Source: Enterobacteria phage P-EibD
Length of the DNA stretch: 3,795 bases
Sequence record: AF151675.1
Direction: 5' to 3' (one strand)
The first letter of the stretch is position 1. Every line of letters begins with the position of its first letter. This document shows positions 24-3,795 of the stretch, one piece after another. The notes under the pieces were generated by a model, which was not told where the DNA came from, made no database searches, and saw nothing but the letters and a program-made list of their open reading frames with translations. The position numbers and the translations under genes are program-made.

Positions 24-611
24 ATGAACATGAATGTGGAAAAAATAAGCAATCCGCAATGGGCAGATAAAGAGCACACTGCTGTCAATTGCATGGTGAA
101 GTTTGAGCACATTGAGCAGGCGGTTCCTTTCACTGCAACAGCCAGCGATACCGAAGCATACGGGCGGGATATTTATGCCGCTTGTCTGAGAGGAGAGGCC
201 GGTGAAATTGCAGAATATGCACAGCCATCCATCAGCCCGGAAAAAGCCAGAGAACTCAAAACCGCCGGGATCAACGCCTGGCGTAATGCGATGGAAGCGG
301 CGAACTACACGTTTGAGCACAATGGGCGTAAATGGGACTACGGGAAGTCAACGCAGACGCGTCTTGAGCCGTCGGTGGCGGCAGCGAAAGCGGGGAAACT
401 GCCGGAGGCGTTTTTCTGGACGGATGCGGACAATAATGACGTACCGATGGACGCTGAAACACTGATTGCTCTGAGTGCTGCTGCAGAGCAGGCGATGTTT
501 ACCAAAGGGATGGAAATCCACGTCCGGCAGCGCACCATGAAGAAAGAGCTGGAAAAGCTGACCAGTGCGGATGAGATACTGGCATACAGGGTTGGCTGGG
601 CACAGGAATAA
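24..611 (+). CDS. Hypothetical prophage-associated protein, 195 aa; possibly a tail-fibre assembly/chaperone-like protein, but this is a guess from position only
   Basis: Uninterrupted 195-codon ORF ending TAA 609-611, with enterobacterial-looking codon usage and no N-terminal signal peptide or hydrophobic segment. AGGAG at 19-23 abuts the ATG at 24 and is better spaced (6 nt) for the in-frame ATG at 30, so the true start may be 30. The ATG at 24 overlaps a TGA at 25-27 in another frame (ATGA), which may mark the end of an upstream gene. I do not recognise the protein family. Confidence 0.7.
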   Translation: MNMNVEKISNPQWADKEHTAVNCMVKFEHIEQAVPFTATASDTEAYGRDIYAACLRGEAGEIAEYAQPSISPEKARELKTAGINAWRNAMEAANYTFEHNGRKWDYGKSTQTRLEPSVAAAKAGKLPEAFFWTDADNNDVPMDAETLIALSAAAEQAMFTKGMEIHVRQRTMKKELEKLTSADEILAYRVGWAQE

Positions 612-974
612 CAGATAAAAATATGGGGGAAACATTTCTTTCCCTCATGAACTATTCCTCCTGTAAATATTTCATGTTAACTGAATAGTTAATTTTTTCT
701 GATGTTGTAATTTTGTTCACAAATTACAGTGTAAGCAGATGTGAAACAGCAAGTCTGACTGGGGTAAGTTTTTTCTGATATCTGTTCCGGCGGTGTGGTC
801 GTATGCGTGAGCAGGTATGCCCAGAATAATGTAAGACAAATCCTAAATTTATAAAATTAATTTTTAAATTTATTTTCGGAATATCCTGAAAAAAGCCGTA
901 ATTAATCAGACTTTTTTATGAGTGTGAGGTGTTGCGGCTGATTTGTATACAGATAATTTAACAGGATATCCATA
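612..974 (+). promoter_or_regulatory. AT-rich intergenic control region upstream of the adhesin gene; promoter not pinpointed
   Basis: 363 bp with no convincing ORF. Hand counts give 12 G/C in 841-900 and 14 G/C in 661-720 (20-23% GC), far below the flanking coding DNA. It contains AT-only symmetric motifs at 845-873 and an AGGA (963-966) 8 nt before the ATG at 975. I could not place -35/-10 hexamers reliably by eye. Confidence 0.5.
625..646 (+). terminator. Weak candidate hairpin downstream of the first ORF
   Basis: GGGAAA (627-632), loop CATTTC, TTTCCC (639-644), extendable by G625-C646 and a G-U pair. It is not followed by a T-run, so it is at best a weak terminator. Confidence 0.2.
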
Positions 975-1052
975 ATGAGTAAAAAGTTTACAATGACACT
1001 CCTGTCATCTTCTCTGGCCGGGCTTCTGGTGATGAGTGGTGGAGTGAGTGCG
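975..1052 (+). other. Signal peptide coding segment of the adhesin (26 aa, predicted cleavage after VSA)
   Basis: Basic n-region MSKK, hydrophobic core [16 protein letters not shown], and c-region SGGVSA with small residues at -3 and -1. Confidence 0.65.
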
Positions 1053-2510
1053 CAGAATGGTACATATTCAGTGTTGCAGGATGATTCGCAGAAGAGCGGA
1101 CCGGTTAAATATGGCAGCACCTATGAAGTTGTAAAGACAGTCGATAATGGTAACTTCAGATACGAAGTAAAAGAGAAAAAAAACGACAAGAGGACACTTT
1201 TCAAATTTGATTCAGAAGGTAATGTGACCGTTAAAGGTAAGGGTATCACCCATACACTTCATGACCCGGCGCTGAAAGATTTTGCAAGGACTGCTGAGGG
1301 TAAAAAAAATGAACAAAATGGAAATACTCCACCTCACAAGCTGACAGACAGTGCTGTTCGTGGCGTGTACAACAAGGTGTATGGCCTGGAAAAAACAGAA
1401 ATTACAGGTTTCAGCGTCGAAGATGGGGAGAATGGGAAGGTTTCTCTGGGTAGCGATGCGAAAGCCTCTGGTGAGTTCTCAGTAGCTGTTGGTAACGGTG
1501 CTAGGGCTACAGAAAAAGCGTCAACAGCAGTGGGCTCATGGGCTGCTGCGGACGGTAAACAAAGTACAGCTCTGGGAGTGGGAACATATGCTTATGCAAA
1601 TGCATCTACAGCCCTGGGAAGCGTTGCATTTGTTGATAACACGGCTACATATGGCACGGCAGCAGGTAACCGAGCCAAAGTTGATAAAGATGCAACAGAA
1701 GGTACTGCGTTAGGGGCAAAGGCAACAGTAACAAATAAAAACAGTGTTGCATTAGGTGCTAATTCTGTAACCACTCGTGATAACGAAGTTTATATTGGCT
1801 ATAAAACCGGAACCGAAAGCGATAAAACATACGGCACCCGTGTTCTTGGTGGCTTAAGCGATGGTACGCGTAACAGTGATGCGGCAACTGTTGGGCAGTT
1901 AAACCGGAAAGTTGGTGGAGTTTATGATGATGTTAAAGCCCGTATAACTGTTGAGTCAGAGAAGCAGAAAAAATACACAGACCAGAAGACCAGCGAGGTT
2001 AACGAAAAAGTTGAAGCCCGCACAACGGTTGGTGTTGATTCCGACGGAAAACTTACCCGTGCAGAAGGTGCGACTAAAACTATCGCCGTCAATGACGGTC
2101 TCGTTGCTCTGTCTGGCAGAACAGACCGTATTGATTATGCAGTTGGTGCCATTGATGGCCGTGTCACCCGTAACACGCAATCCATTGAGAAAAACAGCAA
2201 GGCGATTGCAGCCAATACCCGTACGCTGCAGCAACATTCAGCACGTCTGGACAGCCAGCAGCGCCAGATTAATGAAAACCACAAGGAAATGAAGCGTGCA
2301 GCAGCACAGTCTGCGGCCCTGACAGGTCTGTTCCAGCCGTACAGTGTGGGTAAATTCAACGCCACGGCAGCGGTTGGTGGTTACAGCGACCAGCAGGCAC
2401 TGGCAGTGGGTGTGGGTTACCGCTTCAACGAGCAGACCGCAGCGAAAGCAGGCGTGGCATTCAGTGATGGCGATGCCTCCTGGAACGTTGGTGTGAACTT
2501 CGAGTTTTAA
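975..2510 (+). CDS. eibD: Eib-family immunoglobulin-binding trimeric autotransporter adhesin (YadA-like), 511 aa; paralogue assignment eibD is tentative
   Basis: 511-codon ORF. The N-terminus [29 protein letters not shown] is a typical Sec signal peptide. Residues ~155-276 carry degenerate 14-residue SxAxG repeats typical of a YadA-like head. A neck-like motif [21 protein letters not shown] is followed by a long heptad-rich stalk (aa ~311-440). The C-terminus [15 protein letters not shown]...[34 protein letters not shown] is glycine/aromatic-rich and ends in F, as in YadA-type beta-barrel anchors. The length matches what I recall for EibD (511 aa), but I cannot distinguish EibC/D/E/G without alignment. 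Confidence 0.9.
1437..1802 (+). repeat. Degenerate tandem repeats encoding the YadA-like head (about 14-residue SxAxG units)
   Basis: Successive units in the translation: [83 protein letters not shown]. Boundaries are approximate. Confidence 0.55.
2295..2510 (+). other. YadA-type C-terminal membrane anchor (translocator) coding segment
   Basis: The last ~70 residues show alternating hydrophobic/small residue beta-strand patterning and a terminal aromatic residue, consistent with the 4-strand-per-monomer anchor of trimeric autotransporters. Confidence 0.75.
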
Positions 2511-2535
2511 TTGCTGAAGGTGACATGAAGTATGA

Positions 2536-2567
2536 CGGCAGGCGCAGGACTCTGGTCTGCCGTTTTT
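2536..2567 (+). terminator. Rho-independent terminator downstream of the adhesin gene
   Basis: Stem CGGCAG (2536-2541) pairs with CTGCCG (2557-2562) around a 15-nt loop, followed directly by TTTTT (2563-2567); it lies 26 bp after the TAA stop. Confidence 0.55.
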
Positions 2568-2598
2568 CATGGGGCATAAAAAACAGGAAGGTGCTGCG

Positions 2599-3069
2599 AT
2601 GAAGGTGATTCTGGCTACCAGGAACCGCTATCTGGAGTATGGTCTGCAGGCGTTACTGAAGGGGCACAGTGTGATACTGGCGAGGGAGTTTTTCCTGCCG
2701 GAGAACCGCCGTTATATCCCGGACTTTGACGAATCCTGGCTGATAATCAGTGATGGCCTGCTGGGCAGGCTGATGCGCTGTATGTTCCAGGGGCGTCATT
2801 TTCTGCAACTGGATGCGGAGTTGCTCCGTGATGGTGAGCAGATAAGTGATGCCATACACAACGGCGTCTGGACGTATAACAGTGCTGCCCGCCCGCTGAC
2901 GATGTCAGAGATGGTGGTGATGTTCGGTTATGTCTACCGCCAGTCGAGACCCTGCCGCCTTGCCAGTGAAATGGGTATCCACACGAAGACGGTGAATACC
3001 TTTCTGTATACGGGAATGGCGAAAAACGGGCTGTATGGTGTGAGCGTCAGACGGCTTGTTGGTGCCTGA
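2599..3069 (+). CDS. LuxR-type HTH transcriptional regulator with a degenerate receiver-like N-terminus (GadE/YhiF(DctR)-like), 156 aa
   Basis: AGGAAGG at 2585-2591 sits 7 nt before the ATG at 2599. The longer ORF from ATG 2569 starts inside the upstream terminator T-tract with no SD, so 2599 is preferred. The C-terminal LTMSEMVV...LASEMGIHTKTVNTFLYTGMAKNGL fits the LuxR/FixJ HTH pattern. The N-terminal MKVILATRNRYLEYGLQALL...WLIISDG resembles the truncated receiver-like region of GadE/YhiF proteins as I recall them. Stop TGA at 3067-3069. Confidence 0.75.
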   Translation: MKVILATRNRYLEYGLQALLKGHSVILAREFFLPENRRYIPDFDESWLIISDGLLGRLMRCMFQGRHFLQLDAELLRDGEQISDAIHNGVWTYNSAARPLTMSEMVVMFGYVYRQSRPCRLASEMGIHTKTVNTFLYTGMAKNGLYGVSVRRLVGA

Positions 3070-3251
3070 TGGCGGTCCTGCCGGATGCGCAGAATCTTCT
3101 GATAGTTCAGAAGGTGCAGATGATGAATAAAGAGAGATGCCGGACAATCGGAAGAAAACGTTACACCACAGGCGCAATGTGCTTCATGCTGTTTGTGTGG
3201 CTTGGTGGTGTGCTGGCTCTTGTTGCTACAGCTGCGGTGGTAATGCAGTAA
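3069..3251 (+). CDS. Small predicted membrane protein (60 aa from ATG 3069, or 43/42 aa from ATG 3120/3123) with one C-terminal transmembrane helix
   Basis: The ATG at 3069 overlaps the regulator stop (TGATG), suggesting translational coupling. Alternatively AAGGTG (3111-3116) precedes ATG 3120/3123. A basic stretch (KERCRTIGRKRY) is followed by a ~21-residue hydrophobic segment (AMCFMLFVWLGGVLALVATAAVV). Stop TAA 3249-3251. Family not recognised. Confidence 0.4.
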   Translation: MAVLPDAQNLLIVQKVQMMNKERCRTIGRKRYTTGAMCFMLFVWLGGVLALVATAAVVMQ

Positions 3252-3275
3252 AAAAAGGGGAGCAACATGCTCCCC
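3250..3275 (-). terminator. Rho-independent terminator oriented for minus-strand transcripts (possibly bidirectional)
   Basis: Perfect 7-bp GC-rich stem GGGGAGC (3257-3263) / GCTCCCC (3269-3275) with loop AACAT. On the minus strand the hairpin is followed by seven T (complement of A 3250-3256). On the plus strand the hairpin is preceded by the A-tract and followed by GACCAGAAG, which is not U-rich. Confidence 0.6.
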
Positions 3276-3313
3276 GACCAGAAGAAAGACGTTTGATAAC
3301 AATTAGTGAGTTG

Positions 3314-3388
3314 TTACGTCTTGTCCAGAATATCATAGCAACACTCTGTTGCAGTGATACCGATCGCGATTTTAGCGAATTCCATCAT
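3314..3388 (-). CDS. Candidate small ORF (24 aa, MMEFAKIAIGITATECCYDILDKT); could instead be the body of a small RNA
   Basis: Hand translation of the minus strand gives ATG ATG at 3388-3383 preceded by GGGGA, and a TAA stop at 3316-3314. It lies 37 bp upstream (in minus-strand sense) of the minus-oriented terminator. It is very short and I found no convincing promoter. Confidence 0.2.
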   Translation of the reverse strand: MMEFAKIAIGITATECCYDILDKT

Positions 3389-3431
3389 AAATCCCCTGAT
3401 TTTTAAGCCTGAAGCAGTCAAAGGAATTTCT

Positions 3432-3795
3432 ATGCCCTATATCGATATCACCACGATGCGTGGGATGATGCCGCGCGTTGTGACATCCATGCTGCCCGAG
3501 CATTCCGCTGTACTGGCGGAGGACTGCCATTTCCGGTTTGGTGTTATTACACCAGAACGTCAGATATCCGGGGTTGAGAAAACATTCACAATTAAGCCAA
3601 AAACAATTTTTCATTACCGTGACGATTTCTGGTTTGCATGGCCGGATGTGGTGGATGTGATCCGCAGTCCGATCGCTCAGGACCCCCACGGGCGTATTTA
3701 CTACACTGACGGGCGTTTTCCTAAAGTGACGGATGCGACCATTGCCACAAAAGGGGACGGGAATCACCCGACATCATCGTATCGTCTTGGGATCC
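3432..3795 (+). CDS. Hypothetical protein, 5' partial (first 121 codons; continues beyond the window end)
   Basis: AGGA at 3422-3425 sits 6 nt before the ATG at 3432. The frame stays open to the window end (MPYIDITTMRGMMPRVVTSMLPEHSAVLAEDCHFRFGVITPERQISGVEKTFTIKPKTIFHYRDDFWFAWPDVVDVIRSPIAQDPHGRIYYTDGRFPKVTDATIATKGDGNHPTSSYRLGI), with protein-like composition and no signal peptide. The antisense 131-aa ORF (3372-3767) is Cys/His/Arg/Trp-rich and looks spurious. Family not recognised. Confidence 0.6.
   Translation, partial: MPYIDITTMRGMMPRVVTSMLPEHSAVLAEDCHFRFGVITPERQISGVEKTFTIKPKTIFHYRDDFWFAWPDVVDVIRSPIAQDPHGRIYYTDGRFPKVTDATIATKGDGNHPTSSYRLGI

Follow-up and report, generated by a model that had tools for sequence, protein, structure and literature searches.

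What kind of protein is encoded directly behind the adhesin gene of the Eib phages, and does it act on that gene? We have addressed this question in Enterobacteria phage P-EibD (sequence record AF151675.1), in a stretch of 3795 bp (the window) whose genes are all on the + strand and whose 3' end is a BamHI site (GGATCC). The gene in question, open reading frame (ORF) 156, follows eib, which encodes a trimeric autotransporter adhesin, and an initial annotation made from the sequence alone had described it as a GadE/YhiF-like regulator with a LuxR-type helix-turn-helix (HTH), 156 amino acids (aa) long, at 2599-3069 and directly downstream of the adhesin gene: these coordinates are exact. ORF-156 is a real gene, and its product very probably has a LuxR-type fold; the further reading that we favor, to which we give somewhat less than an even chance, is that of a phosphorylation-independent LuxR-type DNA-binding regulator, gated by the eib terminator and feeding back on the adhesin promoter. 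The parts of the gene are as follows.

2599..3069, + strand: ORF-156, predicted atypical LuxR/FixJ-type regulator, 156 aa (homologues, predicted fold, selection)
2585..2591, + strand: Shine-Dalgarno sequence AGGAAGG of ORF-156, 8 nt before the ATG (direct reading)
2599..2883, + strand: residues 1-95 of ORF-156, truncated pseudo-receiver (predicted fold)
2893..3066, + strand: residues 99-156 of ORF-156, predicted GerE-type four-helix HTH, recognition helix at ~129-142

The gene runs from the ATG at 2599 to the TGA at 3067-3069, and the eib stop codon (2508-2510) lies 88 nt upstream. An in-frame ATG at 2569 was rejected as a start; 2599 is taken as the real one because the former lies inside the U-run of the eib terminator and the homologues begin with MKVIL. 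Both the ribosome-binding site (RBS) and the start codon are conserved, and a purine-rich element is retained at the Shine-Dalgarno position in divergent loci. The homologues (n = 44) are all 'hypothetical proteins' of E. coli, and ORF-156 matches PHROG 6585, a family of unknown function, over its full length (E = 4e-99). Comparison with homologues of 46-71% identity gives ratios of non-synonymous to synonymous substitution rates (dN/dS) of 0.13-0.30, a sign of purifying selection. The mechanical minus-strand ORFs that overlap 2653-3302 have no support from homology or conservation, and were rejected as genes.

An AlphaFold2 model of the product, based on a 24-sequence alignment, was obtained with a predicted local distance difference test (pLDDT) score of 84 and a predicted template modeling (pTM) score of 0.76. 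In this model β1 (residues 2-6) is followed by α1, β2, β3 (47-51), a helix, β4 (67-72), another helix and a vestigial β5, while four C-terminal helices occupy residues 102-153. The top 43 matches of a Foldseek comparison with the PDB are all receiver + LuxR regulators of the NarL/FixJ type, including StyR, LiaR, FixJ, RcsB, DesR, EvgA, VpsT, VraR and DosR; the viral fold library BFVD contributes only weak matches of the receiver + HTH kind. The predicted HTH superposes at 1.5 Å on the C-terminal domain of NarL (NarL-C) taken from the NarL-DNA complex. With respect to profiles, the first one built for the family recognizes only LuxR-type proteins in the PDB, at E ~0.07; after addition of the distant full-length members P0049 and P0050 the resulting profile A2 recognizes GerE (1fse) at E = 4.5e-4, followed by VraR, VqmA and EvgA, and every match at E<0.5 is either a LuxR protein or region 4 of sigma-70.

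The Pfam gathering cut-off for GerE (23.5 bits) is not reached by ORF-156 itself; of its relatives, P0073 scores 28.4 bits, P0049 22.2 and P0050 19.7 (the latter also has 27.7 bits on Sigma70_r4_2), and for comparison the score of GadE from E. coli K-12 is only 26.3 bits. A PADLOC scan of ORF-156 returned nothing, and PHROGs returned only the family of unknown function. The most conserved segment of the family is the recognition helix, KTVNTFLYxGMxKNG, in which KTV..(F/H)..Y....KNG is retained and T131, V132, L136, Y137, K142 and N143 are invariant. Detectable similarity to a LuxR-type HTH had been set beforehand as the test of the annotation: direct domain searches fail to find it, whereas comparisons of the fold and of the family profile succeed, and both the HTH and the short, degenerate receiver-like N-terminus that had been read from the sequence are upheld by the model, by Foldseek and by the profile. 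With these results ORF-156 acquires a confident identity at the level of the fold.

The state of the phosphorylation pocket was judged from the positions of the modeled secondary structure elements together with conservation in the alignment. Its sole survivor is D52, at the end of β3, which is at least 90% conserved; T7-R8-N9 stand in place of the acidic pair that follows β1 in receivers, and there is neither a conserved Thr/Ser after β4 nor a Lys after the vestigial β5. The annotation's remark that an obvious phosphoacceptor context is lacking is therefore mostly right, except that the Asp is kept. No histidine kinase is found in the cassette in any genomic context, the only kinase seen (LytS-type, locus L011) belonging to the host flank past the prophage end. 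The pseudo-receiver probably cannot be phosphorylated in the normal way.

The narrower assignment to GadE (YhiE) and DctR (YhiF) fares less well. BLASTP produces no alignment between ORF-156 and the K-12 GadE or DctR sequences. Profile-profile comparisons, for which alignments of the GadE and DctR families were built, give a full-length hhalign probability of 62% for GadE (E = 7e-5, collinear over 144 columns) and of 26% for DctR, against 99.7% for the benchmark comparison of GadE with DctR. For the N-terminal domain alone the score with GadE is 32.6 over 24 columns (β1-α1), a value reached by none of 200 column shuffles (null 11.2 ± 2.3), and that with DctR is 18.7, reached by 1 of 200; among eight LuxR-type proteins of K-12 these two come out on top. 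With the HTH they are among the weakest: EvgA 35.2, BglJ 34.3, CsgD 32.3, MatA 30.4, RcsB 25.8, DctR 17.8, GadE 14.9. Thus 'GadE/YhiF-like' holds for the general design and for the first ~24 residues, which match GadE, but not for BLASTP, for the full-length profiles or for an HTH that is nearer to EvgA, BglJ, CsgD and MatA. By these sequence comparisons membership of ORF-156 in the GadE/DctR subgroup is not established, and we place it outside that clade, in a family of its own that is new, highly divergent and made up of atypical LuxR/FixJ-type regulators. The annotation was mistaken in taking the Psr regulators for prophage homologues of the same subgroup: PsrA and PsrB are of the AraC/XylS type, and act by inducing GadE and YhiF (PMC10877973). 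ORF-156 has no AraC-family match in Pfam, and its fold is of the LuxR type.

Several known systems offer points of comparison. GadE and DctR are also small (175-176 aa versus 156 aa), and share with ORF-156 a degenerate receiver-like N-domain that opens at β1 with hhhhhT[KR][DN]xhhhxG, an Asp kept after β3, the loss of the acidic pair, a terminal GerE-type HTH and the absence of an adjacent kinase; they differ in that the N-domain of ORF-156 is ~17 residues shorter, and in that they reside in the acid fitness island whereas ORF-156 is prophage cargo. Together with RcsA, BglJ and MatA/EcpR they make up the auxiliary regulators of RcsB, whose FixJ/NarL-type architecture class is also that of ORF-156; these regulators do not need phosphorylation of their own, and several activate H-NS-silenced, acquired or surface-structure genes (PMC5651002, PMC3950696). 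The HTH of ORF-156 scores well against both BglJ and MatA, but these are much longer proteins (225 and 196 aa), and ORF-156 is phage-encoded. NarL, EvgA, RcsB, StyR, LiaR and VraR provide the best structural matches to both domains and to the overall architecture; relative to such canonical NarL/FixJ regulators, however, the pocket of ORF-156 is reduced to the Asp, β5 is vestigial, α5 is gone, the length is 156 aa instead of ~200-220 aa, and no partner kinase is nearby. PsrA, PsrB and PatE of enterohaemorrhagic E. coli (EHEC) have the same setting as the ORF-156 family, namely the cargo regions of lambdoid prophages with effector or Pch/PerC genes as neighbors, but with their AraC/XylS HTH they are not homologous to it. 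Finally, the phage protein VqmA (VP882) governs the lysis-lysogeny decision and carries a PAS domain that binds a ligand, while ORF-156 has a pseudo-receiver and lies in a late/cargo region.

We turn now to how the gene is expressed and to what surrounds it, which involve the following features.

975..2510, + strand: eib, trimeric autotransporter adhesin gene, EibD-type, 511 aa (Pfam YadA_anchor, YadA_head)
2534..2567, + strand: intrinsic terminator of eib, hairpin of -22.3 kcal/mol followed by U5 (fold z-score -4.5, terminator scan)
3120..3251, + strand: ORF-60 core, predicted single-pass membrane peptide of 42-43 aa with basic N-terminus and transmembrane segment GAMCFMLFVWLGGVLALVATAAVV (conservation)

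The stem of the eib terminator is maintained by compensatory changes in loci L011 and L016, and in L068 a non-homologous hairpin with U-run is found at the equivalent place. Only ~30 nt separate the terminator from the start of ORF-156. According to a promoter scan the + strand of the window has no sigma-70-like site, and the only promoter hexamers seen when 2511-2598 was inspected by hand are badly spaced. Because ORF-156 thus appears to have no promoter of its own and a strong terminator lies so close upstream, we infer that ORF-156, together with ORF-60, is expressed by terminator read-through.

An exhaustive profile search of 1.84 billion protein representatives retrieved 37 family members at E<=1e-3 and, at the same threshold, no annotated LuxR protein; a scan of the GTDB species-representative genomes yielded no relative. 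The family is seen in E. coli-type sequences only. A survey of 55 loci, a redundant set whose members are not independent of one another, sorts its genomic contexts into four settings. In the first (37 of the 55 loci) an adhesin gene of the YadA-anchor type is followed by a hairpin with T-run, the regulator (86-94 nt from the end of the adhesin gene) and the ORF-60 core. This arrangement is carried by podovirus-like 933W-type, lambda-like J/tail-fibre and tailspike backbones, at differing insertion sites and often at the prophage end beside dinI; the sister GenBank records of P-EibA, P-EibC and P-EibE have the same order, orf-191, eib, orf-156, orf-60. ORF-60 is present in all 34 assessable adhesin-type loci, and absent where the regulator occurs without an adhesin.

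The arrangement is also found outside phages: in an island flanked by insertion sequences (IS) a 345-aa YadA-anchor protein gene is followed by a different hairpin with U-run and then by a regulator at 46% identity. The most distant members (31-37% identity) lie ~90-120 nt behind a same-strand gene, which encodes in one case an RTX-repeat protein and in another an unknown 690-aa protein with a terminator hairpin. Recurrence of the adhesin-terminator-regulator cassette across backbones and in the IS island, down to 46% identity, is a new observation. Within the adhesin-type loci the regulator and the adhesin anchor vary independently (97% and 81% identity, respectively, in L004; 71% and 95% in L016), which indicates frequent recombination between the two: the cassette is reshuffled, yet its order is kept. 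The exchanges probably occur within the conserved anchor, the terminator and the 5' region of the regulator.

If ORF-156 acts on its neighbor, the place to look for its target is the region upstream of eib, whose features are given here.

612..974, + strand: AT-rich adhesin upstream/promoter region, ~33% G+C, with three conserved blocks (composition profile, alignment)
832..845, + strand: RcsAB-box-like site 1, TAAGACAAATCCTA, 11/14 to TaAGaatatTCctA, fits TNRGAN4TCYNA
876..889, - strand: RcsAB-box-like site 2, TCAGGATATTCCGA, which is the GGAATATCCT block on the + strand, 11/14
942..959, + strand: conserved block TTTGTATACAGATAATTT with the palindrome TGTATACA and a -10-like hexamer GATAAT, in 12-13 of 14 upstream regions

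The three blocks were recognized in an alignment of 14 non-redundant Eib-type upstream regions that are otherwise divergent. Both RcsAB-like sites match the published RcsA-RcsB box, TaAGaa|tatTCctA (PMC3950696), at every strongly conserved position. Site 1 is the only match to TNRGAN4TCYNA in the window (0.17 expected by chance); at ~131-148 bp upstream of the ATG it is the best-scoring site in 10 of the 14 adhesin promoters, and is visible in the alignment in three more. The block at 942-959 lies ~20-35 nt ahead of the eib ATG. Elsewhere in the loci sites of the RcsAB type have a low density, and adhesin-free loci have none. When a shared operator was sought across the family contexts, RcsAB-like boxes, GGAATAnCCT and TGTATACA all turned up in Eib-type adhesin promoters only. 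The motif thus belongs to these promoters and is, as far as ORF-156 is concerned, only a lead: as RcsB works with the small LuxR-type partners RcsA, BglJ, GadE, MatA and DctR (PMC5651002), the boxes suggest that ORF-156 might act there, alone or with RcsB. As a separate observation, the two boxes and the TGTATACA/GATAAT block hint at a possible place for eib in the Rcs regulon that would not depend on ORF-156.

Taken together, these features can be accommodated in the following tentative picture. ORF-156 would be a transcription factor of the LuxR/FixJ (NarL) class, an orphan that resembles response regulators but is atypical. In the lysogen a low level of it would be made by read-through from the adhesin promoter, and in lytic growth the late transcript would allow full expression through phage late antitermination. 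It would bind DNA as a homodimer, or else paired with RcsB or another LuxR-type protein of the host, and its most likely target would be the H-NS-type AT-rich adhesin promoter with its two RcsAB-box-like sites; the outcome would be a terminator-gated feedback loop on adhesin expression, with a sign that may be either activating or repressing. From synteny, local control of the adhesin by ORF-156 is plausible. The annotation had treated neither this link nor one to host regulons as established for Eib loci, and the literature that we searched, to which the original eib and IbrAB papers do not belong, likewise assigns no function to ORF-156 and mentions no LuxR-type regulator at eib loci.

A number of observations weigh against this picture. 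ORF-156 itself has zero matches in direct hidden Markov model scans of Pfam and NCBIfam, even at E<=10, and the sole basis for read-through is the absent promoter consensus. The other three settings of the family do not involve Eib: in the second, lambda-like prophages of enteropathogenic E. coli (EPEC)/EHEC type carry a tail fibre gene, a 180-aa homologue and then NleG, EspM2 or NleH, with neither adhesin nor ORF-60; in the third the regulator stands alone on the chromosome, in an island that has hpaABC on one side and a PerC homologue on the other; in the fourth a truncated, 93-aa remnant of ORF-156 is found at the equivalent position of Shiga toxin (Stx) phages of the 933W/phi24B type. Since the latter keep only the remnant, the gene is dispensable for the phage. 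RcsAB-like boxes and TGTATACA are missing near the regulator in the NleG-type and hpa-type loci, and the boxes are missing also from the distant island adhesin locus L069; thus the operator would be locus-specific and not family-wide. Host RcsB or RcsA-RcsB alone could equally use the boxes. Finally, eib activation is reported to depend on IbrAB, encoded elsewhere (Sandt et al. 2002, as cited in PMC6008420), in agreement with the annotation. Expression of Eib/EibG is reported to be weak and dependent on growth conditions (PMC4352079).

Some details of these and other loci deserve mention in their own right. In the second setting, the annotation pipeline PGAP marks parts of an intact ORF as pseudogene fragments (L061 and L063, from E. 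coli 2015C-4136CT1 and phage 2B8 gp25). The regulator of the third setting, P0032 (164 aa, 55% identity; loci L006-L010), is the most abundant member of the family; it follows a ~1.1-kb unannotated gap beside hpaC, and is itself followed by DcuA/B fragments and a PerC-family gene, while tblastn at these hpaABC island loci found no adhesin remnant. The 93-aa remnant is present in phi24B (vb_24B_38, L062 3968-4249) and in about 150 records of Stx1 and Stx2 phages, between the tail-spike/fibre genes and a 567-aa gene, in phages that have neither eib nor ORF-60; the phi24B record annotates its truncated copy as identified in 933W and P-EibD. In L067 (2699-3208) P0050 is followed, 22 nt further on, by a canonical GerE-domain protein of 169 aa (50.7 bits), a tandem of small LuxR-type genes reminiscent of yjjQ-bglJ; the second protein was rejected as a paralogue of ORF-156, as only the HTH aligns. 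About 6 kb downstream of P0049 (L064/L065 9548-9678) lies a gene with the domains PAPS_reduct and DUF3440, which we take to be the domain pair of IbrA, an activator of eib; its proximity to P0049 could be a coincidence or a link to eib activation.

The first alternative to local feedback, possible if on the unlikely side, is that ORF-156 mainly targets host regulons (acid resistance, the locus of enterocyte effacement with its type III secretion system, motility, surface structures) and not its neighbor, its place behind the adhesin resulting only from the moron-style insertion of genes where the tail-fibre region of lambdoid prophages ends. The recognition helix is the same throughout a family that is found with at least three kinds of cargo and once by itself; this is consistent with such a role, as are the uncoupled identities of regulator and adhesin anchor and the precedent of PsrA/B, PatE and RgdR, prophage regulators that hijack host networks (PMC10877973). 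However, the order of the genes and their ~90-nt spacing persist to 46% identity and outside phages, which is hard to understand without functional coupling, and distant members also follow genes for surface or secreted proteins, such as the RTX protein and the 690-aa ORF with its terminator.

A second proposal, rather unlikely in our estimate, is a more specific version of the local-feedback reading and not a strict alternative to it: ORF-156 would be a prophage-borne auxiliary partner of RcsB, forming a phosphorylation-independent heterodimer on composite sites, made up of an RcsB half-site and a half-site of its own, and would thereby link the Rcs network with what the prophage carries (Eib adhesins and perhaps effectors) and oppose silencing by H-NS. 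The architecture class is that of the known auxiliary regulators (PMC5651002), and the only GadE-specific similarity falls in β1-α1, the region of the NarL-like dimer surface, which is reported to be needed on the RcsB side (Ile14; PMC5651002). The two sites of the Eib-type promoter match the RcsA-RcsB box at 11 of 14 positions, and the recognition helix stays invariant from one genomic context to the next, as would be expected if the family members shared a partner or target in the host. On the other side, the boxes have the near-symmetry of RcsA-RcsB and RcsB-RcsB sites, and host proteins could thus use them alone; they are missing from the NleG-type, hpa-type and L069 loci, and the profile similarity to GadE and DctR is weak.

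It is very unlikely, in our opinion, that ORF-156 is a decoy or anti-activator that titrates a host LuxR-type regulator without binding DNA, or that it forms a membrane-tethered signaling pair with ORF-60. An HTH so divergent that Pfam GerE misses it, and an ORF-60 that is translationally linked or adjacent and never absent from assessable adhesin-type loci, point in this direction; nonetheless the predicted HTH superposes closely on NarL-C from a DNA complex, its recognition helix is the most conserved segment, and ORF-60 is absent where the regulator occurs without an adhesin. As to the linkage, ORF-60 is annotated with 60 codons (3069-3251), so that its start overlaps the ORF-156 stop (TGATG), but the first 17 codons are not conserved, PHROG 9340 covers only residues 18-60, and in other loci stop codons occur upstream of the core; the annotated start is therefore probably wrong. 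The core has a dN/dS of 0.04-0.23. The least credible idea, that ORF-156 is a decaying passenger with no current function, can draw on the truncated remnants common in Stx phages, on copies that PGAP treats as partial and on the mere 37 cluster representatives found among 1.84 billion proteins, but is contradicted by intact ORFs at 46-71% identity under purifying selection (dN/dS as above), by the confident predicted fold and by the conserved RBS and start codon.

The remaining features of the window flank the cassette.

24..611, + strand: ORF-191-type tail-fibre/assembly-like gene (Pfam DUF4376, E = 1.7e-19)
3257..3275, - strand: GC-rich hairpin, perfect over 8 bp and followed on the minus strand by T7 (read as A7 on the + strand), abutting the ORF-60 stop at the 3' end of the cassette
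3432..3795, + strand: beginning of the phage late gene that comes next (PHROG 17680/511; a 933W-type 'hypothetical'), which runs off the cloned fragment

The gene at 24-611 is the last phage structural gene ahead of the cassette; it corresponds to orf-191C in the P-EibC annotation, and its product matches PHROG 1141 ('tail fiber protein') at E = 2.9e-79. The eib product is 87% identical to EibC. An Rfam scan of the window produced zero matches. Judged from its sequence, the hairpin at 3257-3275 would be a strong terminator on the minus strand only, and its sequence recurs behind the ORF-60 homologue of L040. Upstream of the hairpin the minus strand contains an ORF of 24 codons, MMEFAKIAIGITATECCYDILDKT (3321-3392), with an AGGGGA Shine-Dalgarno sequence and no Rfam match; the minus strand of 3257-3392 may be an antisense or small-protein transcription unit, or else a 'reverse' terminator that protects the late operon. 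In L002 (~4110-4400, E. coli G1/2) two more hairpins of the form GGGGAG...CTCCCC with an A-run occur in an insertion upstream of the adhesin promoter; the design they share with 3257-3275 suggests that these prophages have an element in several copies, or a family of terminators for the minus strand.

These results bear on a regulation that is poorly understood; the only named activators of eib are IbrAB. The ORF-156 gene has been labelled 'hypothetical' since 2000, and since Pfam, NCBIfam and PGAP all miss its relatives too, a new domain family could be set up for their annotation; the RcsAB-box-like sites are concrete targets for mutation. In a broader conjecture, to which we attach a low probability, the members of the family, carried by prophages and islands, would be co-regulators of RcsB, or else LuxR-type anti-silencers that act on their own, each placed behind the terminator of a surface-protein gene, so that stochastic read-through would set off a positive-feedback, possibly bistable switch of the cargo. 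The cargo would be Eib-type adhesins and perhaps NleG/NleH effectors; the switch would be connected to the Rcs envelope-stress system of the host, and ORF-60, the co-conserved membrane peptide of 42 aa, might supply an input. Such a switch, if real, could explain the poor and heterogeneous expression of eib; and if ORF-156 does have a regulatory role, it would be one more prophage regulator through which virulence cargo is coupled to networks of the host.

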